In this document: positions 5,099-36,706 of the stretch, piece by piece
Numbering within the stretch: position 1 is the first letter of the stretch
Layout of the letters: every line of letters starts with the position of its first letter
Origin: a virus
Virus record (IMG/VR): IMGVR_UViG_3300031616_000011
Coordinates: 1 to 48,883 of that record
Reading direction: 5' to 3' (one strand)
DNA: 48,883 nt
The notes under the pieces: model-generated
What the model saw: only the letters and a program-made list of their open reading frames with translations
Databases searched by the model: none
What the model was told of the DNA's origin: nothing
Made by a program: the position numbers and the translations under genes

Positions 5099-6685
5099 TC
5101 AGGCGAATACGGCCCACGGCTCGTTGTCCTCCTCCTCGAGGGCTCCGTCCTCGATGGCCTGCCCGCGGGCGGCCTCGGCGAGGAGTCCAGCAACGAGAGC
5201 GTCGATGTGGCCCTTGTCCCGTTTCGGGATGACCCGCAGGTAGTGGTGTGTCGCCGACGGGTCCTCTTCGGGGCGGGGTGCGCGTTTCCGGCCGCGGGCG
5301 ATCGCCGCCTGCATCGCGTGCGCGCGGAGGGTTTCGTCGCCGTCGTGGGTCAGGTCCCTGGCCAGGACCGTTTGGAAGCGGACGATGGCGTCGTCCATGC
5401 GTTTCTCGACGTTCGTGGGGAACTCGACGATCCGGTCCGGCCAGCGTGCCGCCCAGACGTCGAAGTACTCCTGCCACCGGTAGGGGTCGCCGAAGAAGTA
5501 CCGGACGTCGTAGGCGTCGAACGCGTCCGTCAGGGTCTGGTCGACCTCGGTGCGGGGGACCTTGTGGTCCGGATACTCGGCAGGGTTCCAGGTTTTCAGG
5601 TGAAACCAGCGGCCGTCGCCGACCCGGGACGCGACCAGGGATGTGCAGTCCTGGGAGCGGGACCCGTCGAAGCCGATCGCGATCATGTCGCCGGGCGCGA
5701 GGTCACGGTCGCGGACGAGCGCGTCCCAGCGGGTGGCGTCGACCGCGTCGCTGACGCCGACGACGATGAGGTTGAAGAAGTAGCGGAGGGCGTCGGGCCA
5801 GGTCGGGCAGACACCCGGGTCATGAGCGTCGGTCAGGACCCGTTCGCGGTCGACCCACCAGCTGTCGCCGTAGACGATTTCAAGGAGGGCGAGACAGTCC
5901 TCGTCGTCGTGCTCGTCCGGCTGCCGGGGCGGCGGCCGGTAGTCGACGACCACATCGGTGGCCTTGTGCTCGTGGGTGCGCTGCGCGACCGACTTCTGCG
6001 ACGGGTCGTACGCGTTCGTCGTCTCCAGCCAGCGGCCGGACATGCCGCCGATGTTCCGCTTCATCGTGCTGGCCAGCAGGACACCGCCGTTGGACTCGAC
6101 GAACAGGTGGGTCTCGTCGAACACGGCGAAGGTGAGGCGGGCACCGAGGCGGGCCTTGCCGGACGACGTCCGAGGTTCGATCTTCCCGCCGGAGGGCAGG
6201 TTGATGTCCTCGACGCCGATGTCGACACCGGGGATGTCGGCGACGGGGCCGCGGCGGGCCATCTCGTACACGCACAGCCACGTGTTGTCGGTCTGTTCCT
6301 CGGAGGTGGCGACGATCTGGATCCACGGCGTCGGGTGAGCGATGCCGAGGGGTTCGCCGTCGTCGTCCCAGCCGTCGAACCGGACCGGCCCGAACGCTTC
6401 GGCGAGGCAGATCGCGGCGGCGAACGGGCCCTTGCCCCACTTCTGTGGGCGCATCAGCAGGCCGCCGCGGTTGTGGAATGCGGCCGAGGGCCGGTCGGGG
6501 AGCCGGCGGGCGTGCGGCTTGAGCCGGTAGAACCGGAACAGGAACAGCCACATCTCGTCGGTGAGCTTGTACGGCTCGCCCTGGTGGTTGCCGTCCGGGA
6601 TGACGCAGTTCTCTTCGATCCACGCCCCGACGGCGTAGCCCAAAGTGGGATATTCGCCCTCGACCTCGGGGCCGCGCCAGGGCAT
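5099..6685 (-). CDS. terL: Terminase large subunit
   Basis: 528 aa from ATG 6685 (MPWRGPEVEGEYPTLGY). The ATPase region includes VFDETHLF and the nuclease region includes IAIGFDGSRSQDCTSL. The track N-terminus up to 7144 is an Arg/Pro shadow overlapping terS. Confidence 0.92.
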   Translation of the reverse strand: MPWRGPEVEGEYPTLGYAVGAWIEENCVIPDGNHQGEPYKLTDEMWLFLFRFYRLKPHARRLPDRPSAAFHNRGGLLMRPQKWGKGPFAAAICLAEAFGPVRFDGWDDDGEPLGIAHPTPWIQIVATSEEQTDNTWLCVYEMARRGPVADIPGVDIGVEDINLPSGGKIEPRTSSGKARLGARLTFAVFDETHLFVESNGGVLLASTMKRNIGGMSGRWLETTNAYDPSQKSVAQRTHEHKATDVVVDYRPPPRQPDEHDDEDCLALLEIVYGDSWWVDRERVLTDAHDPGVCPTWPDALRYFFNLIVVGVSDAVDATRWDALVRDRDLAPGDMIAIGFDGSRSQDCTSLVASRVGDGRWFHLKTWNPAEYPDHKVPRTEVDQTLTDAFDAYDVRYFFGDPYRWQEYFDVWAARWPDRIVEFPTNVEKRMDDAIVRFQTVLARDLTHDGDETLRAHAMQAAIARGRKRAPRPEEDPSATHHYLRVIPKRDKGHIDALVAGLLAEAARGQAIEDGALEEEDNEPWAVFA

Positions 6686-7092
6686 TACTCGACCGCCCGC
6701 AGGCGGGGCCGATCCTGTCGCTTCGGGGCGCGCTGCTCGGCGAGCTCGTCGACGACGACCTCCCAGCGCAGGCGCAGCATCGACATCGGGGTGAGGCCGA
6801 GGCGGTCCTCGAGCTGGCGGACCTCGGCGAGGTGCGAGGGTTTGGCCGTGCGGGACTCGCCGACGATGAGGGCCCTGACGTAGCGGGCGACGGTCCGGGT
6901 GACGTTCATCTGCGCCCAGGCGGCGGCCTGCGGGAGACGCCAGAGGTCTTCCCACGCGTCGAGTTCGTCGCCGTCGGGGTCGCCGATCGGCCAGTCGGGG
7001 GCCGGGCCGGTGAAGCCTTTGGCGGGGAGTTGGGTGGTGTTCGGGCGGGCGTTGCGGCGGCGCGGGTTCGCGGAGGGCGCAGGACCGGGCAT
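6685..7092 (-). CDS. terS: Terminase small subunit (putative)
   Basis: 135 aa. ATG 7092 is preceded by GAGGTGGG. There is a 1-nt stop/start overlap with terL. Lies directly downstream of the HNH gene and the cos-like non-coding region. Confidence 0.65.
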   Translation of the reverse strand: MPGPAPSANPRRRNARPNTTQLPAKGFTGPAPDWPIGDPDGDELDAWEDLWRLPQAAAWAQMNVTRTVARYVRALIVGESRTAKPSHLAEVRQLEDRLGLTPMSMLRLRWEVVVDELAEQRAPKRQDRPRLRAVE

Positions 7093-7146
7093 CGACGTCA
7101 CCCACCTCACGCTGAGTAGCTTCACGCAGAGTGGTGATGTCCACAT

Positions 7147-8561: not shown

Positions 8562-10145
8562 CTACCCGACGGGTGGGACGTTTTCCGCCAGCCATGGCCA
8601 GGTCGCGTTCCGACCGGCCTCGATCAGGGGCACCATCTTGAACGTCGCGTCGGTCAGGCCGCCCATCTCGACCCGGTTCGTCTTCCCGGCGTCGACCGCC
8701 CCGACCTTGTAGCCGCCGAGGTTGAAGCCGTACAGCGCCACGTTGCCCGGGACCGCGGTAGACACGTCGCCGGTCATGGTCTGCATGTCCGAGATCAGGA
8801 ACACCCGGTCGTGGCCCGACCACGTGCGCCGCAGCGAGCCCGCGATGTCGGTGCCGTGGCCGACCTCACCGGTGCGCTTCACGAACCGGTCGACTTCCTT
8901 CAGCACGCTGGCGCCCTTCGGCACGTCGTGGCGGAACACGCCGTCGGCGAAGCCGTGGACGTCCGCACCGCAGCGAGCGCCGAGCACCACGCCGAACACG
9001 GCCGCGGCCTTCGCCGGGGTCATCTTCGACTTCGCCGAGTAGGCCATGTTGGTCATGGACGCCGAGGTGTCGATGAGGACGAGGGTGCGGCCGTCGAGCC
9101 GCGGCACGTTGCCGAGCGCGGCGTTGAGCGCCTTGTCCAGGGCGTGGCCCCACCGCAGCGACGGAGCTGCCTCGTACGCCGCGAGGAACCGGTACGGGAA
9201 CTGGCGGGACTTCGCCACCTGCGCGGGGTCGGCCAGGCGGGCGGCCACCGTGTCCGCGACGTCGTCGGAGACGCCCGCCTCGTCGAAGTTCCGGAGGTTC
9301 CGCAGCAGCGCCATGTAGCCCATCGACGGGATCAGCGCAGCCCACAGCTTCGCCTTGTCGACCGTCGGGCCCGCCAGGGACAGCGCGTCCTCCCACGTCA
9401 TGCCCGCACGCTTGAGCGCGTCGGCGTTCAGCAGAGACTCCGGCTCCTCCTTGACCACGCCGCGGAGCCACGCGTTGAAGCTCACCATCGACAGTCCGGA
9501 CGGGATCGTGTCGCCGCGGCCGTGCCGCCGGTCCAGCGCGTAGCTGAACAGTTCGCCCTGCCACGGTTCCTTCGGTGACGGGTGGACGAGGTCGAGGACA
9601 TCGCCGAATCGGTAGCCCTTGCTCACCGTGTCGTACCGCAGGAGCGAATACTCCGTGTAGAGCCGCACCGCCGCGTCCGCGACACCGCGCTTGACCGGCT
9701 TCGGGATCGCCCGGCCGTAGCGGGACGTCCAGTAGGCGAGGGCCTCGCCGGGCTCGTCGGCGCGCTGGAGCACGCTGGCCACGATCGGACGGGCGCCGGG
9801 CACCTTCGCCGCAACCATCGCCTTCGCAGCCTCCAGCGCGCCGACCAGGGAGGCGGAACGCATGTTGCCGTCGCCGCGCAGCCAGCCGAGGAAACCGGCC
9901 GTCCAGTGCGGGTCGGCGACCGCGGTCTGCGCGACCAGCGACCGGTATCGGGCGTCGCGGTCGGTCGCGCCCTCATAGAACGTCTGCTCCCCGACCATGT
10001 TCGCGACCGCGAGGAGGAACAGCTCCGACTTGACCGTGCGGGCGTAGCCGGGCGCGCCCTCGTACGTTGAGCCGGTCGGCTGCGCTGCGGTCTCGATCGG
10101 ACCCTTGGCCACCACGCGGTGGTCGACGACGTTGAACTTGGTCAT
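8562..10145 (-). CDS. rsr: Ro60 orthologue (Rsr): TROVE domain plus vWA domain
   Basis: 527 aa from ATG 10145 (GAGGAG upstream). TROVE-like motifs FYEGATDRDARYRSLV and MGYMALLRNLRNF. The C-terminal vWA domain has MIDAS residues (LIDTSASM, GHGTD, ISDMQ). Y-RNA-like modules lie immediately upstream. Confidence 0.85.
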   Translation of the reverse strand: MTKFNVVDHRVVAKGPIETAAQPTGSTYEGAPGYARTVKSELFLLAVANMVGEQTFYEGATDRDARYRSLVAQTAVADPHWTAGFLGWLRGDGNMRSASLVGALEAAKAMVAAKVPGARPIVASVLQRADEPGEALAYWTSRYGRAIPKPVKRGVADAAVRLYTEYSLLRYDTVSKGYRFGDVLDLVHPSPKEPWQGELFSYALDRRHGRGDTIPSGLSMVSFNAWLRGVVKEEPESLLNADALKRAGMTWEDALSLAGPTVDKAKLWAALIPSMGYMALLRNLRNFDEAGVSDDVADTVAARLADPAQVAKSRQFPYRFLAAYEAAPSLRWGHALDKALNAALGNVPRLDGRTLVLIDTSASMTNMAYSAKSKMTPAKAAAVFGVVLGARCGADVHGFADGVFRHDVPKGASVLKEVDRFVKRTGEVGHGTDIAGSLRRTWSGHDRVFLISDMQTMTGDVSTAVPGNVALYGFNLGGYKVGAVDAGKTNRVEMGGLTDATFKMVPLIEAGRNATWPWLAENVPPVG

Positions 10146-10147
10146 GC

Positions 10148-10184
10148 GAAACGGGCTCCTCACGTGACGTGGGGAGCCCGTTTC
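10148..10184 (-). promoter_or_regulatory. 12-bp hairpin between the Y-RNA array and rsr; it sequesters the rsr Shine-Dalgarno
   Basis: Minus strand reads GAAACGGGCUCC-13 nt loop-GGAGCCCGUUUC followed by GCAUG. The GGAG of the 3' arm is the rsr SD. It could also act as a weak terminator or 3'-end former for the RNA array. Confidence 0.5.
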
Positions 10185-10190
10185 CAGAAA

Positions 10191-10337
10191 GCTGTGCCCG
10201 AGGTCAAGGCGGATCCGGTGACGTTTAGCGCTCTACCACTGAGCTACATCCCAGGTCTGACCCGGGACGACGGGATTCGAACCCGCGACCTCTCTATCCC
10301 AAATAGAAGTAACCGAGTCCTGCGCACCGGGCACAGC
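10191..10337 (-). ncRNA. yrlA: Y RNA, YrlA-like, with a complete circularly permuted tRNA-like domain (module 1)
   Basis: Terminal stem GCUGUGCCCG/CGGGCACAGC. Second helix GGACUCGGUUAC/GUCACCGGAUCC (10 of 12 pairs). T arm GCGGG-UUCGAAU-CCCGU. A 9-bp acceptor-like stem CGUCCCGGG/CCUGGGAUG is closed by a UCAGA loop. D arm GCUC-AGUGGUA-GAGC. Ends about 45 nt upstream of rsr on the same strand. Confidence 0.75.
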
Positions 10338-10351
10338 ATCTGAAGTTGTGA

Positions 10352-10481
10352 CTCCCCGAGATCAATTACAGGCTGACGGGATGCCACACGCCACGTGGCT
10401 GGCGAGCCGCGACCTTGCGGGAGCGGCTGCCTGGATTCGAACCAGATCCCAGAAGGAACCGTCGACCAGCGCACCGGGGAG
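10352..10481 (-). ncRNA. Y-RNA-like module 2 (T arm retained, divergent effector domain)
   Basis: Terminal stem CUCCCCG/CGGGGAG with the same flanking CGGUGCGC and UUGAUCUCGG strands as module 1. Inner helix GACGG/CCGUC. T arm UCUGG-UUCGAAU-CCAGG. Hairpin AGCCGC..CC-GCAA-GG..GCGGCU. Hairpin CGCCA-GCCACG-UGGCG. Confidence 0.6.
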
Positions 10482-10499
10482 GTGCATATCAAGTTGAGC

Positions 10500-10573
10500 C
10501 CCACCGAGATCAAAGCGCCTGCGGAACCGGTCAAAATCGCATTTGAAGTAACCGCGGGCTGCGCACCGATGGG
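10500..10573 (-). ncRNA. Y-RNA-like module 3 (minimal, no tRNA-like elements)
   Basis: Terminal stem CCCAUCG/CGGUGGG (one G-U) with the same CGGUGCGC .. CGGUUACUUC and UUGAUCUCGG strands. Only a short internal hairpin, CGGUU/GACCG. Confidence 0.5.
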
Positions 10574-10603
10574 AACGATCCTGACGCTAACCCACCCTGG
10601 ACC

Positions 10604-26618: not shown

Positions 26619-27467
26619 ATGAATAAATTGATTCAGCTGCACCTCGTGGCGCTACGCCAACAGAGCATGTCCGAACGCAGCCGCGAGGACGCCGCCGCCG
26701 TCCTCGAACGTATGCACGCGGCGCTGAAGCTCGGCATCGCCAAGACCAGCAGAACCGAGTTGGAGAGTTTCCTCGCCGGCCCCGCAGACTCGAAACGGGC
26801 CTGGTCCGACGGGACCCGCGCAACGTACTTCGGTCACGCGGCCCGCTTCTACGCCTGGGCGACCGACCCCGACGTCGACCTGATCAGCCACAACCCGATG
26901 GAGAACATGCCCCGGCCGCAGACACGCAGGGGGAAACCCCGTCCGCTGTCACCCCGCGAGCTGGACATCGTGCTCACCCGGTCGGCGCAGCCGTTCCGGC
27001 TGTGCGCGTTGATCGCGTTCGAGACCGGCTTGAGGTGCTGCGAGATCGCCGGGCTGCGGAAGTGCGACGTCGGGGAGGACGACGTCTACATCCGCAAGGC
27101 GAAGGGCGGCGGCAGCGAGACAGTCCCCGGGCGGCCGGCGGCGCTGATCGACGCCATCAGCGACCTGCCGGACGGGCTGCTCGTCGAGGCGGTCGGCGGG
27201 ATCGCGGACGCCCGGTGGATCTCGATCCGGTCCGCGGTCTACTTCCGGCGCACGCTCGGCCTGCCCGGGGTGAGCCTGCACCGGATGCGGCACACCTACG
27301 CGAAACGGCTCCGGGACGCCGGGCACGACCTGTTCGTCCTGCAACGGCAGCTCCGCCACAAGAGCGTCCAATCGACGCAGATCTACGCGGGGGCTACGGA
27401 TGAGGAGTGTCGCCAGGCCGTACGGGGCCTGACGACACCCTCATACCTGTCTCAGATCGCCAGCTAG
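26619..27467 (+). CDS. int: Tyrosine integrase/recombinase
   Basis: 282 aa with catalytic pattern GLRCCEIAGLR .. HRMRHTYA .. LRHKSVQSTQIYAG (R, HxxR, H, Y). Confidence 0.92.
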   Translation: MNKLIQLHLVALRQQSMSERSREDAAAVLERMHAALKLGIAKTSRTELESFLAGPADSKRAWSDGTRATYFGHAARFYAWATDPDVDLISHNPMENMPRPQTRRGKPRPLSPRELDIVLTRSAQPFRLCALIAFETGLRCCEIAGLRKCDVGEDDVYIRKAKGGGSETVPGRPAALIDAISDLPDGLLVEAVGGIADARWISIRSAVYFRRTLGLPGVSLHRMRHTYAKRLRDAGHDLFVLQRQLRHKSVQSTQIYAGATDEECRQAVRGLTTPSYLSQIAS

Positions 27468-33334: not shown

Positions 33335-36300
33335 TCACAGGCCGATCACACCGGGCTGCCACAGCGACACCTTCGCGCCGGCGTTGTGGGCGATGGCAGT
33401 CCCGTTGACCCCGCGGGTCACGGTGAACAGTTGGGTTTGCGGCAGGGTGATGCCGTCGAACTCGGTGAAGTACGGCGCCGCGTTCGTGACACCGGCGTCG
33501 CGTTCCGCCTGGACGGCGATGTCCCCGACCGGCGGGATGGCACCGGTCGCGACCGTCGACGTCGGGGCGCCCGGCCGGGTCGTGCCGCGGATCCACACCC
33601 ACGCCTGCAGGAGCGTCGGGGTGACCCGCAGCAGCACCGAGTACGGGGTTGTCGTCCCGCCGATGCTCGGGAAGGTGCCGTCCTGCGCGACGAGGCTGCC
33701 GCCGGACACCTGCCCGACCGCGCACGACGCGGTACCGCCGACGCCGCAGTACAGCTGGACCCGGACGTAGTTGTTGGCGTCCGCGCGGCACGCGAACAGC
33801 GTGAGGGTCACATTCCCGCTGCCGGTCGGGGCGGCGGCGACGTGCATCAGGTCGGCGTACACGTCGAGGGTCGGACCGACCCCGACGGGCAGGACCGACA
33901 GCCGCTGCGTCACCGTGGTGGAAAGGTTGATGACGCCGAGCGTCCCGTTGGTGGAGAAGTCGCTGGCCGAACCGCCGGAGGATGCCCACACCTGCCCGCT
34001 GTCCGCGGTACCCCAGGTGCTGCTGGTGGTGCGGGTGAACGTGTCGTTGACGAGGCCGCCGATTCCTGTGACGGTGATCCGTTCGCCGTCGACGTTGACG
34101 TTGAACGGCCAATCCCCGCTCGCTGTCGTCCACAGGGGACTTCCGGCCAGGGTGCTGACCGGCAGCGTTCCCGACGCCAGGGCTGCCGTCGCCGCGACCG
34201 TCCCGGCCAGGGTCGAGTCGTCGGTGTCGATCCGGCCGAGGTTCCCGACCGTGGACTCGACCTCCCACACCTGGTACGGCCGCGCGCTGGTCAGGTTCAG
34301 GACCACCGTCCAGGAGCCTTCGCCCGGGTCGATGGTCTCGGTCCAGCCCTCGATGTGCAGGTCCAGGAGTGGCACCCCGAGCTCCGGGGGCGGGTTGAGA
34401 ATCTGGATCCGGGACCCGACCCAGCACCGTTTCCACGCCTGCAGCAGCTGCGGGGTGGCGGCGAAGTTCAACGTCAGCTGCGGGATGCGGATGTCGTCGA
34501 CGGTGCCGATGTTGACCCGCCAGCCGGCCTGCTGGACGGTGTCGGTGTCCAGCAGGGTGTTGAGGGTGATGCCCTCGTCGTAGTCCTGGTAGAGGGCGAT
34601 GTGGGCCGCGTTGAACGCGATCCCCCGCGACCCCCCGGACCGGGTGACGACCTCGTAGTTGCGGGACGTCTGGTCGTCGTCGGCGGTCTTCAGGTCCGAC
34701 AGGTGTTTCAGGGCGTGGTTGAGGGTCAGGTCGACGGGCCGGTTGTACCGCTCATACCTGGCCATGTAGTAGAGGCCGAAGCCGCGTTCGGACAGGATCC
34801 CGCCGTCGACGGTGGCCGCGTCCTGGATCAGGCCGAGGGTGTTGGTGGCGGGCTGCGGGCCGAGCTTCGACACCTTCGTCGCGTCGTCGGCCACCGACAC
34901 CGGGATGCCGGCGTCGGCGCAGACGCCCGCAATCCGGTTAGCGGCCGTGTTCGCGACCCAGCCGCCGAACGCCCCCGAGAACGGGCCGCCCGACTGGTCG
35001 GAGAAGAACGCGATCTCCCCGACGGCGCCGGTGAACGCGTTGCCGGTGCCGAAACCGGCGGTCGCCTGGACCGGCCAGCCGACATTCCGTCCGGTGAGGG
35101 TGCCGGTGATCGGCGCGTAGGTGACGTTGCCGAGGATGTCGTAGAACTGGAGCGAGTAGGCGATGTCGGCGCCGGACTGGGAGGCGTTCGCGACCATGTA
35201 CCAGGGCTTGTTGTAGAACGCGGCCCAGGTGACGTTGGTGAAGCCGATCTGCGTGCCGGTCGAGTCCAACGCGCGCATGATCATGGCGTCGCCGGCGGAG
35301 ATGACGAGCCGCCACGTGATCCCGCTGGTTGTCGTCCACGAGACGAGGAACGCGTCGACGGACGGGGTGCCGTCGATCTCCAGGACGCAGCGCATCCCCC
35401 AGCTGGTGTTGCCGGTGACCAGCGGGATCGGGCCGGTCGCGTAGCCGGTCGCCCCGAACCGGGGCAGCGCCGCACACCCGGGGGCACCCGTGTAGCTCGC
35501 GAGGCTCAGGCCCAGCATCGTCATCGGGGCCGCACCGACCTGGCTGGTCAGCGTGATGGATCCGGTCGGGTCCTCCATCGGCCAGTACTGGACCGGCTGG
35601 AGATGGTTCCGGGACGTCAGCGCGCGGACGGCCGCCGAGGTGGCGGGGCCGGTGCCCTGCTGCATCTGCTGCAAGATCCCGGCCGCGGTGATGGAGACCG
35701 TCGAGTCCCGGGCGGTCGGGTCCCAACTGACCGGGAGGGTGGCGATCCGGCCCTCGAACCGCACCGGCGGCGCCTCGACGAGGATCTGGTCGTAGGAGAA
35801 CTGGACCGGCAGGGCGTTGGTGTTGCCGGTCGCGACCCCGGACCGCACCCCGATGTGGCCCGGCTGATCCAGCGGCGCCGGGTCCACGACGGACACCGTG
35901 TAGCTGGCGGGTTTCGCGGCGCCCTGCCAGATCCGCATCCTGATCGTGGAGCCGTAGCACTCCGCCTCGATGTTCAGTGGTGTCCCGGCGGCGTGGGTCA
36001 GGCCGGGGACGGTGACCGGACCCAGCAGGGTCGTCGAGCCCGTCGCGGTCGCGTTCCGGAAGATGATGATCTGCACGGCCGCCGCGGTCGTGACCTGGAC
36101 CCGGCACAGGTAGTAGTCGAGGTTCCCGAGCCGGCGCAGGGCGATGTTGCCGGGTTCGAGGTTCGCGCCGGTCGGGACCGGGCAGGACACGGTGAGGTTC
36201 ACCCGGACGTCGGCGAGGTTCGGCCGCAGCGGCAGGTTCGACTGCCGGAACCCGTTCGTCGTCGGCTGGGAATGGATCCCGAACCCGCCCGAGACCGGGA

Positions 36301-36706
36301 AGTCGGTGCCGAGGACGGAGCCGCCGAGGCCCTGGTTGGCCCACACCTGACCGGTGTCCGCGGCCGGCGCCCACGAGTTCGCGGACGTCCGGGAGAACGT
36401 GTCGAGGGCCTGCTGGACGTAGTTCGCCGTGTCCGCCAGCAAACGGATCGGGATGTTCCGGCGGATCTGCCCGTACCAGGGTCCGGCCAAATTCCGGGCG
36501 ACCCACCGGCCGCCCTTGTTGTCGACCAACAGCTGGAACGTCGACGGCGGCATCTGGGAGAACCCGTCGCGGCGGCCCTGCGTCGTCGTGGTCTTGTTCG
36601 CCGCCCGCACCCACGGGGTTGCATCGGTCCAGGTGATGGCGCCCGGACCGAGTGTCGGATCGGCGCCGAGGCCGAGTTCGACAGCGACGGGGGTGTTGAG
36701 CGCCAT
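33335..36706 (-). CDS. Large minor tail protein, 1123 aa (Dit-like N-terminus, probable baseplate/tip functions)
   Basis: ATG 36706 after GGAGGTG. First minus-strand gene after the tape measure. N-terminal STFQLLVDNKGGRWVARNLAGPWYGQIRRNIPIRL resembles distal tail proteins. Confidence 0.75.
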   Translation of the reverse strand: MALNTPVAVELGLGADPTLGPGAITWTDATPWVRAANKTTTTQGRRDGFSQMPPSTFQLLVDNKGGRWVARNLAGPWYGQIRRNIPIRLLADTANYVQQALDTFSRTSANSWAPAADTGQVWANQGLGGSVLGTDFPVSGGFGIHSQPTTNGFRQSNLPLRPNLADVRVNLTVSCPVPTGANLEPGNIALRRLGNLDYYLCRVQVTTAAAVQIIIFRNATATGSTTLLGPVTVPGLTHAAGTPLNIEAECYGSTIRMRIWQGAAKPASYTVSVVDPAPLDQPGHIGVRSGVATGNTNALPVQFSYDQILVEAPPVRFEGRIATLPVSWDPTARDSTVSITAAGILQQMQQGTGPATSAAVRALTSRNHLQPVQYWPMEDPTGSITLTSQVGAAPMTMLGLSLASYTGAPGCAALPRFGATGYATGPIPLVTGNTSWGMRCVLEIDGTPSVDAFLVSWTTTSGITWRLVISAGDAMIMRALDSTGTQIGFTNVTWAAFYNKPWYMVANASQSGADIAYSLQFYDILGNVTYAPITGTLTGRNVGWPVQATAGFGTGNAFTGAVGEIAFFSDQSGGPFSGAFGGWVANTAANRIAGVCADAGIPVSVADDATKVSKLGPQPATNTLGLIQDAATVDGGILSERGFGLYYMARYERYNRPVDLTLNHALKHLSDLKTADDDQTSRNYEVVTRSGGSRGIAFNAAHIALYQDYDEGITLNTLLDTDTVQQAGWRVNIGTVDDIRIPQLTLNFAATPQLLQAWKRCWVGSRIQILNPPPELGVPLLDLHIEGWTETIDPGEGSWTVVLNLTSARPYQVWEVESTVGNLGRIDTDDSTLAGTVAATAALASGTLPVSTLAGSPLWTTASGDWPFNVNVDGERITVTGIGGLVNDTFTRTTSSTWGTADSGQVWASSGGSASDFSTNGTLGVINLSTTVTQRLSVLPVGVGPTLDVYADLMHVAAAPTGSGNVTLTLFACRADANNYVRVQLYCGVGGTASCAVGQVSGGSLVAQDGTFPSIGGTTTPYSVLLRVTPTLLQAWVWIRGTTRPGAPTSTVATGAIPPVGDIAVQAERDAGVTNAAPYFTEFDGITLPQTQLFTVTRGVNGTAIAHNAGAKVSLWQPGVIGL

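Follow-up and report, generated by a model that had tools for sequence, protein, structure and literature searches.

The temperate phage genome analysed here (the window, i.e. the whole 48,883-nt stretch of IMG/VR record IMGVR_UViG_3300031616_000011) is ~49 kb long, 69% GC and siphovirus-like, and no close relative of it was found in GenBank. Its minus strand carries rsr, whose product is 44-71% identical to those of 160 other rsr loci; the closest solved relative is the Ro60 of phage phiLo (PDB 9KOP/9L5Y, E 2e-28), and D. radiodurans Rsr (2NVO) is matched with an E of 5e-6. On the same strand, 45 nt upstream of the rsr ORF, ends the last of three Y RNAs arranged in tandem, which is the subject of this analysis. 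PHROGs/NCBIfam scans assigned no function to the small neighbouring ORFs, and Pfam on two of them likewise gave none. The features of the locus, together with the integrase gene, are collected in Table 1.

Table 1. Features of the Y RNA-rsr locus and the integrase gene, in window coordinates.
Feature	Position	Strand	Remarks
Very probable YrlA-type Y RNA gene (module 1 / module C)	10191..10337	-	147 nt between terminal-stem ends
Terminal stem, 5' strand GCUGUGCCCG	10328..10337	-	Partner is 10191-10200
Terminal stem, 3' strand CGGGCACAGC	10191..10200	-	Perfect 10 bp with 10328-10337
Near-invariant 5' motif GGUGCGCAGG	10319..10328	-	Internal loop above terminal stem; columns invariant or at least 90% (alignment A1)
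Conserved 3' motif CCGCCUUGACCUCGGG	10197..10212	-	Faces 5' motif
Long helix, 5' strand GGACUCGGUUAC	10309..10320	-	Pairs with GUCACCGGAUCC at 10 of 12 positions
Long helix, 3' strand GUCACCGGAUCC	10211..10222	-	Helix 2 of covariation set
13-nt hairpin CUA-UUUGGGA-UAG	10294..10306	-	Between long helix and AGGUC
A45, G46 (tRNA positions 42, 43)	10292..10293	-	Partners at 10227-10228
Variable-loop pentamer AGGUC (A44 G45 G46 U47 C48)	10287..10291	-	From sequence; C48 can form Levitt pair with G15
T arm GCGGG-UUCGAAU-CCCGU	10270..10286	-	From sequence and MFE fold; helix 5
Closed acceptor-like hairpin CGUCCCGGG-UCAGA-CCUGGGAUG	10247..10269	-	9 bp, 2 of them G-U; loop UCAGA
U8-A9 linker	10245..10246	-	From sequence; kept across family
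D arm GCUC-AGUGGUA-GAGC (A14 G15 G18 G19 A21 present)	10230..10244	-	From sequence and MFE fold; helix 7
G26, C27, U28 equivalents	10227..10229	-	Immediately 3' of D stem
rsr, Ro60/Rsr orthologue (TROVE + vWA-like, 527 aa), presumed protein partner	8562..10145	-	Pfam TROVE, E 4.5e-19
Strong hairpin between Y RNA and rsr start codon	10148..10184	-	dG -29.9, z -6.0
Module B, second Y RNA	10352..10481	-	CM R1 37.4 bits, E 1.2e-5
Module A, short Y RNA	10499..10574	-	CM R1 48.1 bits, E 1e-7
Tyrosine integrase	26619-27467	+	16 kb from element

Read from 10337 to 10191, the element has a terminal stem of 10 bp, then a long helix, and then a tRNA-like core whose parts follow one another as anticodon-like hairpin, T arm, closed acceptor-like hairpin and D arm. 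The MFE fold of the 147 nt (-64.8 kcal/mol, z = -3.28; none of 200 shuffles is equally stable) gives the same arrangement of T, acceptor-like and D arms. The inner 7 bp of the acceptor-like hairpin correspond to tRNA pairs 1-7:66-72, and the helix runs 2-3 bp beyond 1:72, without an encoded CCA. Among the tRNA-core nucleotides that can be read from the sequence, U8, A9, A14, G15, G18, G19, A21, G26, A44, G46, C48, G53, U54, U55, C56, A58 and C61 are present. The 5' strand of the long helix contains a conserved UUAC (10312-10309), which is the counterpart of the YUAY described for YrlA RNAs (Chen et al., 2014, RNA 20:1715, PMC4201824). The two upstream modules share parts of this layout: the 5' motif GGUGCGCAGG is also found at the head of modules A and B, and the 3' motif recurs likewise. 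Module B has the same Rsr-stem motifs, a T arm (CUGG-UUCGAAU-CCAG) and an acceptor-like hairpin, with another hairpin where the D arm is expected, and module A has a predicted Rsr-binding stem, a UUACUUC junction and a small loop only.

The element is widespread. A single-sequence nhmmer search returned 164 matches, every one on the rsr strand, and matches lie upstream of rsr in 123 of the 154 eligible related loci, in the same place and orientation; the family HMM scores the element at 114 bits. Among 60 homologues, 95.0% of the cells are paired (versus 39-44% with partners slid) and compensatory changes are seen in 26 of 41 pairs, values that none of 500 shuffles attains, and RNAalifold yields the terminal stem, the long helix and the T, acceptor-like and D helices. 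Helix by helix, (i) the terminal stem (helix 1) is 96.9% paired, with compensatory changes in 6 of 12 pairs and 10-20 such changes at four of the outer pairs across the 60 homologues, (ii) the long helix (helix 2) has them in 6 of 9 pairs, (iii) the T arm (helix 5) is 100% paired, with compensatory changes at three pairs, (iv) the acceptor-like helix (helix 6) has them in 4 of 5 alignable pairs and (v) the D arm (helix 7) is 98.8% paired. With such changes, and at a fixed distance upstream of rsr, the element is kept in over 100 loci of phages and bacteria.

This pattern of change bears on two readings that would deny the element an RNA function. The region could be protein-coding, as mechanical ORFs overlap it (10244-10534 minus, 96 aa; 10119-10343 plus, 74 aa) and homologous mycobacteriophage regions are annotated as small hypothetical proteins. 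Both ORFs, however, fail the GC3/GC2 filter, which true genes get through in this genome of 69% GC, and the substitutions are paired-stem compensations and loop indels, not codon-like, and we give coding almost no credence. Just as little can be said for a degenerate tRNA remnant without a function of its own, be it a tRNA pseudogene or an attP core that stems from a tRNA gene of the host. The element does show blocks of tRNA-like sequence, and the temperate phage encodes a tyrosine integrase, but this integrase is 16 kb off, the element is conserved with rsr and not with the integrase, its compensatory changes occur at that fixed distance from rsr in more than 100 loci, and the order of its arms is unlike that of the tRNA 3' fragment used for integration.

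A sequence-only reading of this stretch had named AGGUC, the T arm, the acceptor-like stem, UCAGA, UA, the D arm and the helices, and all of them lie on the minus strand where it had placed them. Its T-then-acceptor-then-D order is borne out by both the MFE fold of the 147-nt minus-strand sequence and the covariation, and the D/T/acceptor arrangement, whose absence from a covariation-supported fold it had regarded as decisive, does form. The alternatives that it had considered, a translated region or an attP remnant, fail against an integrase 16 kb away and an element found upstream of rsr in more than 100 loci. Its statement that this is not a linear tRNA gene also stands, with no ARAGORN call in the window and an Rfam tRNA match (21.1 bits) below the cutoff of 29. 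Other RNA classes that were considered and rejected are tmRNA, two-piece permuted forms included (none by ARAGORN, no Rfam tmRNA match), and mascRNA and HOXB13-AS1, whose Rfam matches (17.9 and 13.8 bits) are weak and attributed to chance.

What the element very probably represents is a YrlA-type bacterial Y RNA gene in a temperate actinobacterial phage. Wang et al. (2018, bioRxiv 10.1101/312249) liken YrlA RNAs to tRNAs that are circularly permuted and have a closed acceptor stem, and the sequence-only reading had likewise spoken of a circularly permuted tRNA mimic of YrlA type, an assignment upheld by the published features, by homology to ET08 and by the Rfam YrlA match. The features are (i) adjacency to rsr and paired 5' and 3' ends, (ii) T and D arms with the invariant tRNA nucleotides and, between them, a closed acceptor-like hairpin, (iii) the UA linker (10246-10245), named as conserved in YrlA (Wang et al., 2018, bioRxiv 10.1101/312249), G15 with C48 (Levitt 15:48) and UUAC for YUAY and (iv) homology to a published member. 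The published anchor for this comparison is ET08 YrlA, which is drawn in Fig. 1D of Chen et al. (2014, PMC4201824). CM R1, the training of which left out Bxz1-like mycobacteriophages, matches the ET08 element over its full length (70.6 bits, E 5e-12), and blastn finds ~77% identity over ~95 nt in ~200 Bxz1-like mycobacteriophages, directly upstream of a Ro-like gene. The score of CM R1 on the window element (133.4 bits) is that of a sequence belonging to the R1 training set. The Rfam YrlA model (RF02553) gives 37.7 bits (E 1.7e-6) and does not reach its gathering cutoff of 69 bits; a scan of the window at gathering cutoffs returns nothing, the YrlA match appearing in the E-value scan only. None of 20 related actinobacterial/phage loci scanned reaches the RF02553 cutoff, ET08-type phage Issimir included, and this cutoff is therefore without discriminating power inside the clade. 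The YrlA family is already known, phages included, and the window element adds one member to it.

The presumed Rsr-binding site is a variant. The published motif GNCGAA(N0-1)G is absent, and the window carries UGCGCAGG inside the near-invariant GGUGCGCAGG, with CGCA for CGAA; among homologues, a minority has GUGCGAAGG, and ET08 has GCCGAGAG. By analogy with Chen et al. (2014, PMC4201824) and with phiRo60-Yrl2 of phiLo (PMC12135203), we presume that GGUGCGCAGG is the Rsr site, as a CGCA variant of the published GNCGAA/CGAA. Its position and invariance agree with such a role, which its sequence would fill in altered form.

The part of the core that lies 5' of the T arm deserves attention of its own. 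It contains the hairpin known as the 'V' stem-loop in the literature, and the tRNA body is closed off beneath the D stem by two pairs, A45-U111 and G46-C110 (RNA numbering). Neither the hairpin CUA-UUUGGGA-UAG nor these two pairs figure in the sequence-only reading. Among the 60 homologues, columns 47-119 hold AU 30, GC 19, CG 7 and UA 2, and columns 48-118 hold GC in 56; in alignment A5, the counts are AU 40, GC 39, CG 10 and UA 8 for 28:42 and GC 65, UA 12, AU 10 and CG 9 for 27:43. Since the pairs 27:43 and 28:42 covary, the break in the tRNA falls within the anticodon stem, on its 5' strand, and not in the anticodon loop, where the sequence-only reading had put the opening: covariation places the exit of the chain between tRNA nucleotides 28 and 29, at a three-way junction, and an anticodon-like stem-loop is retained. 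A different pairing, in which the invariant UU (columns 31-32) would bind columns 47-48 and lengthen the hairpin as in the MFE fold, was discarded, since the covariation partners of columns 47-48 are columns 118-119.

The hairpin segment is 13 nt long in 52 of the 60 homologues, and its loop follows a signature in these 52, with Y32 in 45, U33 in 48, R37 in 50 and A38 in 49 (the count was repeated on 114 viral matches). The window has U32 U33 UGG G37 A38, and the triplet comes in 22-23 different kinds on a near-invariant body. We read the 10306-10294 hairpin here as the lower 3 bp and the 7-nt loop of an anticodon-arm mimic, which, stacked on 27:43 and 28:42, would amount to a 5-bp stem capped by a 7-nt loop of the signature Y32-U33-NNN-R37-A38.

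With so complete a set of parts, the gene might be thought to be a permuted or split tRNA gene that yields a functional, aminoacylated decoding tRNA, RNase P/Z opening the acceptor loop and the anticodon stem being ligated or assembled with a nick. None of the four tRNA arms is missing, the anticodon-like loop has 7 nt, the tertiary-contact nucleotides are in place, and M. smegmatis YrlA is cut by RNase P and given CCA (PMC4201824). When re-permuted constructs are made (joined at 28|29, acceptor loop open), ARAGORN calls a tRNA in 60 of 60 family members, a weak test, as 56 of 60 controls are still called after their hairpin has been shuffled; it backs the acceptor/D/T geometry only and does not discriminate the hairpin. 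We nevertheless hold a decoding tRNA to be very improbable: a hypervariable triplet on a near-invariant body is the opposite of what a decoding tRNA has, the acceptor helix extends past 1:72 and no CCA is encoded, no bulge-helix-bulge motif is evident on inspection, the scans of neighbouring ORFs turned up neither a splicing endonuclease nor a ligase, and both the linkage to rsr and the invariance of the Rsr-stem motifs favour a Y RNA. Within the YrlA assignment, a tentative and rather doubtful generalisation would be that YrlA of the actinobacterial/actinophage clade, the ET08 RNA included, is a whole-tRNA mimic and not a tRNA deprived of its anticodon loop, in which mimic the V hairpin completes the anticodon stem, the triplet evolves freely and the Rsr arm exits at 28|29. 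Were the anticodon-like loop functional, the phage RNP could offer a tRNA decoy or sensor to host enzymes directed at anticodon loops, such as anticodon nucleases or modification enzymes, and the three tandem Y RNAs, with their graded tRNA-likeness, could serve a single Rsr as alternative adaptors.

Between the Y RNA and rsr, the 3' arm of the strong hairpin holds a GGAG Shine-Dalgarno (10159-10156), and a hairpin pairing an SD-like motif occupies the same place in 78 of 84 related loci. The terminator scan did not flag this rsr-proximal hairpin, which has three U only, and the upstream scan for sigma-70-like promoters found none. A cis-acting leader of the rsr mRNA (e.g. an Rsr-binding autoregulatory or attenuator element), from which no free trans-acting RNA would accumulate, fits the position 5' of rsr, the want of a predicted promoter of its own, the conserved hairpin that sequesters the rsr Shine-Dalgarno directly 3' and the precursor that M. 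smegmatis Y RNAs share with rsr (PMC4201824). As the sole role of the element, this seems distinctly unlikely, however, given that the homologous M. smegmatis RNA is processed to stable species that co-precipitate with Rsr (PMC4201824), that the homologous element of Gordonia phage Boopy is located not in the leader of the Ro-like gene but ~1.1 kb downstream of it, within a tRNA array, and that the full tRNA tertiary core is kept, for which a leader would have no need. The leader and Y RNA roles are not mutually exclusive.

For the element as a Y RNA, the following course can be proposed. It would be transcribed from the minus strand together with the two upstream Y RNA modules, and with rsr by read-through, and the transcript would then be trimmed to ~147 nt. 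The paired ends and the internal loop (5' GGUGCGCAGG, 3' CCUUGACCUCGGG) would bind the ring-shaped phage Rsr/Ro60, whereas the remainder of the RNA, by sequence and covariation, folds as a complete tRNA-shaped body with all canonical tertiary-contact nucleotides. The RNA could act as tether and gate, linking Rsr to a host factor that recognises tRNA or degrades RNA. Most likely this would be PNPase, the partner in the RYPER complexes known from Deinococcus, Salmonella and Thermus phage phiLo; tethering to PNPase is here an extrapolation from these systems. The outcome might be altered RNA turnover in infection or lysogeny. In M. smegmatis, YrlA is itself ~147 nt long and encoded upstream of rsr; Rsr binds this RNA, which is processed out of a precursor that it shares with YrlB (Chen et al., 2014, PMC4201824), and the Ro60 of phage phiLo binds two upstream phage Y RNAs as well as host PNPase (NAR 2025, PMC12135203).

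The Y RNA/Rsr cassette is now seen in a small temperate actinophage, which means that Ro60-Y RNA modules are not limited to the large Bxz1-like mycobacteriophages and phiLo. There is also value for annotation, as the Rfam YrlA model misses the whole clade at its gathering cutoff, ARAGORN miscalls 25 of 60 relatives as tRNAs, and deposited phage genomes show the homologous elements as tRNA-Arg or tRNA-Leu, or with invented small ORFs across them. Y RNA specialists might take an interest in (i) the 'V' hairpin, by covariation a probable anticodon-arm mimic, and (ii) the conserved SD-sequestering hairpin before rsr, both of which bear on what the tRNA-like domain recruits.

M. smegmatis YrlA and its ET08 counterpart are among the closest known systems: all are of ~147 nt, upstream of rsr and on its strand, with UUAC (YUAY) and the same succession of hairpin, AGGUC, T arm, closed acceptor-like hairpin, UA and D arm. 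With ET08, the T arm GCGGG-UUCGAAU-CCCGU and the D arm GCUC-AGUGGUA-GAGC are identical, and the extra Y RNAs alongside include one with a T arm only, like M. smegmatis YrlB. The differences lie in the Rsr-stem motif (GGUGCGCAGG in the window, GGCCGAGAG in ET08), in the three tandem modules of the window, in the phage that carries the element (a ~49-kb temperate siphovirus-like genome versus an ET08-type 155-kb myovirus) and in the acceptor-like stem, which has 9-10 bp in the window versus 7 bp in M. smegmatis YrlA, making RNase P processing uncertain here. Salmonella Typhimurium YrlA (6CU1, RF02553; bioRxiv 10.1101/312249) also joins an Rsr-binding stem to a tRNA-like domain with a closed acceptor stem, and, like the window element, it shows the UA linker, the conserved D/T elbow and a pyrimidine at position 48. 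It differs in that its T arm is not preceded by a hairpin and in that it 'lacks the anticodon loop', its anticodon stem leading directly into the Rsr module; the window element keeps a hairpin of 3 bp with a 7-nt loop, stacked on a stub of 2 bp, and lies outside any rtcBA operon.

Thermus phage phiLo, with phiRo60 and Yrl1/Yrl2 (PMC12135203; 9KOP, 9L5Y), likewise combines a phage Ro60 with tandem Y RNAs directly upstream, in which a 5'-3' stem flanks an internal bulge bearing the protein-binding motif, a presumed one in the window. In phiLo, phiRo60 forms a RYPER-like complex with host PNPase, which is slowed, and this is the only experimental phage-Ro60 mechanism (PMC12135203). The motif is CGAA in phiLo and CGCA in the window, the hosts are Thermus and an actinobacterium, respectively, and the terms 'tRNA-like' and 'YrlA' are used 0 times for Yrl1/Yrl2 in the phiLo paper (PMC12135203). 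D. radiodurans Yrn1 is another Rsr-bound Y RNA with a T-arm-like stem-loop, and tethers Rsr to PNPase in RYPER, but its T and D elements differ in order and orientation, no sequence similarity between it and the window element was detected, and it evolved independently of YrlA according to Chen et al. (2014, PMC4201824). Finally, the permuted tRNA genes of Cyanidioschyzon merolae also have the 3' half before the 5' half and an acceptor end that is at first closed by a loop. Their transcripts are circularised and processed to decoding tRNAs (Soma et al., 2007, as cited in Wang et al., 2018, bioRxiv 10.1101/312249), whereas in the window the junction carries predicted Rsr-binding motifs and the 'anticodon' is hypervariable.

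From the end of the element under study (module C) it is 45 nt to the start codon (ATG) of a co-directional 527-aa ORF, which has a TROVE domain (Pfam E 4.5e-19). Among solved structures, the closest to this Rsr, the presumed protein partner, is Thermus phage phiLo Ro60 (9KOP/9L5Y), matched over the full length at E 2e-28, D. radiodurans Rsr (2NVO) being a more remote relative. All the motifs named in the sequence-only reading are present where it had placed them (see table), and folding of the 147 nt returns the arm arrangement it had claimed as the minimum-free-energy structure (-64.8 kcal/mol), with a stability equalled by 0/200 shuffles (z = -3.28). The nucleotides that make tertiary contacts in tRNA were all found (U8, A9, A14, G15, G18, G19, A21 and G26, then A44, G46, C48, G53, U54, U55, C56, A58 and C61). 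ARAGORN found no tRNA or tmRNA across the whole window, and no family passed the Rfam gathering thresholds in a window scan. When the surrounding kilobase was scanned permissively, YrlA (RF02553) was the top match (37.7 bits, E 1.7e-6, whole model covered), and the Rfam tRNA model, with a cutoff of 29 bits, scored only 21.1.

Y RNA modules, their parts and neighbouring or related features. Positions after an L-number refer to that related locus, all others to the window.
Feature	Position	Strand	Description
Module A	10574-10499	-	short, minimal Y RNA: Rsr stem and UUACUUC junction only
Module B	10481-10352	-	T arm and acceptor-like hairpin; D arm replaced by a different hairpin
Module C	10337-10191	-	element under study, nearest rsr
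Terminal stem	within 10337-10191	-	GCUGUGCCCG/CGGGCACAGC
Long helix	within 10337-10191	-	GGACUCGGUUAC/GUCACCGGAUCC, 10/12 positions paired
'V' hairpin	10306-10294	-	CUA-UUUGGGA-UAG, 13 nt, between long helix and AGGUC
AGGUC	within 10337-10191	-	directly 5' of T arm
T arm	within 10337-10191	-	GCGGG-UUCGAAU-CCCGU
Acceptor-like hairpin	within 10337-10191	-	9 bp, loop UCAGA
D arm	within 10337-10191	-	UA, then GCUC-AGUGGUA-GAGC
Hairpin before rsr	10184-10148	-	-29.9 kcal/mol, z -6.0; GGAG Shine-Dalgarno in 3' arm
rsr	8562-10145	-	Ro60/Rsr (TROVE) gene
Longest mechanical TerL ORF	5099-7144	-	
153-aa ORF	6685-7146	-	overlaps TerL ORF
1123-aa ORF	33335-36706	-	
VanLee YrlA	L003 2118-2261		R1 117.9 bits
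VanLee GenBank tRNA-Arg(tct)	L003 2122-2193		5' part of VanLee YrlA
Boopy YrlA	L002 2982-3119		R1 67.4 bits
Boopy GenBank tRNA-Leu	L002 2968-3056		5' part of Boopy YrlA; overlaps genuine tRNA-Gln
Rfam tRNA model, above cutoff	L065 1773-1846		part of a YrlA copy
Rfam tRNA model, above cutoff	L120 2312-2383		part of a YrlA copy
Issimir CDS	L001 2917-3256		small 'hypothetical protein'
ET08 CDS	L164 2260-2433		small 'hypothetical protein'
Catelliglobosispora koreensis tRNA array	L084 634-1930		~15 tRNA genes

With the window Rsr as query, 80 viral and 80 actinobacterial loci were retrieved, in which nhmmer (single 147-nt query, E < 1e-3) gave 164 matches, every one on the rsr strand. Of the 154 loci having enough flank, 123 have a match upstream of rsr; matches end 20-90 nt before its start codon in 98 loci and are present in two or three copies in 33. 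RNAalifold, applied to 60 distinct full-length homologues aligned with MAFFT (A1), finds the terminal stem, the long helix and the T, acceptor-like and D helices. In the refined structure, standard pairs fill 95.0% of cells (vs 39-44% with the 3' partners slid by 1-3 columns), compensatory double changes occur in 26/41 pairs, and 0/500 column shuffles attain any observed measure. Selection therefore acts on the fold, which is not a by-product of GC content. Position and covariation contradict both a protein-coding reading of the region and an origin as an attP or tRNA remnant, each of which is extremely improbable. Module C is a conserved structured RNA gene beside rsr, with a tRNA-shaped core; its end-stem is conserved and includes an internal loop that is invariant.

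That this gene belongs to the YrlA type of Y RNA is very likely. YrlA RNAs are encoded beside Ro60/Rsr in >250 bacteria and phages, one of them mycobacteriophage ET08; their T and D stem-loops are nearly invariant, a fourth 'V' stem-loop is often present 5' of T, YUAY is conserved and a GNCGAA(N)G motif is found on the 5' side (Chen et al., 2014; PMC4201824). The M. smegmatis YrlA (~147 nt) has its gene upstream of rsr and binds Rsr; it shares a precursor with YrlB and is cut by RNase P and CCA-tailed (Chen et al., 2014). [quoted passage not shown] The family, its tRNA mimicry, the 'circularly permuted' description and its occurrence in phages are already published (2014, 2018, 2025).

The element shows ~77% identity over ~95 nt to about 200 Bxz1-like mycobacteriophages, directly upstream of their Ro-like gene, and its T and D arms are identical to those of ET08. 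The covariance model built from A1 (R1), whose training set includes no Bxz1-like mycobacteriophage, matches the ET08 element over its full length (70.6 bits, E 5e-12) as well as elements in the Gordonia phages VanLee and Boopy. The window element misses the RF02553 gathering score of 69 bits, a cutoff that is uninformative for this clade because it is reached by 0/20 related loci scanned, including that of the ET08-type phage Issimir (L001-L004, L007, L026, L065, L084, L085, L095, L101, L113, L120, L121, L127, L138, L139, L141, L149 and L153). These actinobacterial and actinophage loci all encode Rsr, most with a clear homologue of the element. The exact GNCGAA motif is absent, near-invariant GGUGCGCAGG standing in its place (CGCA for CGAA), and GUGCGAAGG is found in a minority of homologues.

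A departure from published accounts concerns the 'V' hairpin, which the sequence-only reading had left out. This stem-loop has been equated with the tRNA variable arm (Chen et al., 2014), and S. Typhimurium YrlA is described as being without an anticodon loop (Wang et al., 2018), but for the window clade the alignment points to another reading. In A1, C110 and U111 (RNA numbering), right after G26, covary with G46 and A45, right before the AGGUC loop: columns 47-119 are paired in 58/60 (AU 30, GC 19, CG 7, UA 2) and columns 48-118 are GC in 56/60. These two pairs closing the tRNA body are tRNA positions 27:43 and 28:42, which in an alignment of 114 distinct viral matches to the covariance model are GC 65, UA 12, AU 10, CG 9 and AU 40, GC 39, CG 10, UA 8, respectively. 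The hairpin adjoins them on the 3' strand with no gap and is exactly 13 nt long (3 bp and a 7-nt loop) in 52/60, with Y32 in 45/52, U33 in 48/52, R37 in 50/52 and A38 in 49/52, the three positions between U33 and R37 being hypervariable (23 different triplets). Viral loops are similar (U33 61/65, R37 61/65, A38 60/65; 22 triplets). Such a loop has the signature of an anticodon loop, and the canonical 5-bp stem is made up of 2 + 3 bp. ET08 (CUC-AUUGAAA-GAG, AG, AGGUC), Boopy and VanLee follow the same scheme, VanLee with a compensatory C28-G42. Closing-pair covariation and hairpin statistics therefore argue best for a full cloverleaf whose acceptor end is closed. Entry and exit of the chain would be at a three-way junction that separates nt 28 from nt 29 on the 5' strand of the anticodon stem, instead of the opening at the anticodon loop that had been proposed. 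ARAGORN is non-discriminating here, as it called a tRNA in 60/60 re-permuted constructs but also in 56/60 shuffled-hairpin controls. Use of such a permuted tRNA in decoding is extremely unlikely, given a hypervariable triplet on an invariant body.

Because relatives keep the anticodon-like arm, they are prone to tRNA miscalls. The GenBank tRNA calls in VanLee and Boopy are such miscalls, caused by the anticodon-like hairpin and the T arm, and ARAGORN calls a tRNA in 25/60 native homologues. In Bxz1-like mycobacteriophages (Issimir and ET08 in the table), the small CDS annotated across YrlA, ahead of the Ro-like gene, are probably spurious. The tRNA array of Catelliglobosispora koreensis, directly upstream of its YrlA-rsr cassette, recalls the Boopy array beside the Ro-like gene; it could be a sign of a prophage or of a tRNA-array island.

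Module C is separated from the rsr ATG by a strong hairpin. A counterpart in which an SD-like motif is paired is predicted at this position in 78/84 distinct related loci (median z -2.9), and a U run extending to the ATG often comes after it. The hairpin is probably either a terminator/attenuator setting the Y RNA:Rsr ratio or a translational gate for rsr. That module C is itself a purely cis-acting rsr leader is improbable: the M. smegmatis precedent speaks against it, as does Boopy, whose element belongs to a tRNA array located downstream of the Ro-like gene.

The window is a temperate siphovirus-like phage genome (GC 69%), whose rsr strand also encodes major capsid, protease, portal, large terminase (TerL) and an HNH-like ORF, with a tyrosine integrase on the opposite strand, 16 kb from the element. 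A comparison with 50,697 GenBank phage records turned up no close relative; for TerL, Streptomyces phage Kromp matches best (40% amino-acid identity). The Arg/Pro-rich N-terminal ~150 aa of the longest mechanical TerL ORF are without PHROG match, matches beginning at residue 159, and the true start is probably near 6670; the overlapping 153-aa ORF has good codon statistics and is possibly the small terminase. Unrelated to the Y RNA, the 1123-aa ORF matches phrog_5313 (E 9.5e-122) and, in its C-terminal region, phrog_24476, a family annotated as phosphodiesterase.

By analogy, the Y RNA would (i) be processed out of a multi-Y-RNA precursor, as in M. smegmatis (Chen et al., 2014), (ii) bind the Rsr ring through its end-stem and internal loop (Chen et al., 2014), as suggested by phiRo60-Yrl2, for which cryo-EM and CGAA mutagenesis are available (NAR 2025; PMC12135203), and (iii) recruit an effector through its tRNA-like domain. 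Host PNPase is the only effector demonstrated for phage Ro60, a RYPER-like complex attenuating its activity in vitro (PMC12135203). Chances are roughly even that PNPase tethering would be the specific role of the Y RNA.

The cassette is now known from a new phage lineage, in a clade systematically missed or miscalled by Rfam and genome annotations, to which this analysis adds the anticodon-arm reading of the 'V' hairpin and a conserved SD-sequestering hairpin. Module C does not stand alone. The upstream ORF and rsr are separated by 440 nt, in which the motif pair 5' GGUGCGCWG and 3' UUGAYCUCGG occurs three times; modules A and B (R1 scores 48.1 and 37.4 bits) share the Rsr-stem motifs of module C (5' GGUGCGCWG, 3' UUGAUCUCGG), and each has conserved homologues and covarying terminal stems. 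In related loci, such motifs are found upstream of rsr in two to five copies. These tandem modules parallel YrlA/YrlB of M. smegmatis and Yrl1/Yrl2 of phage phiLo.
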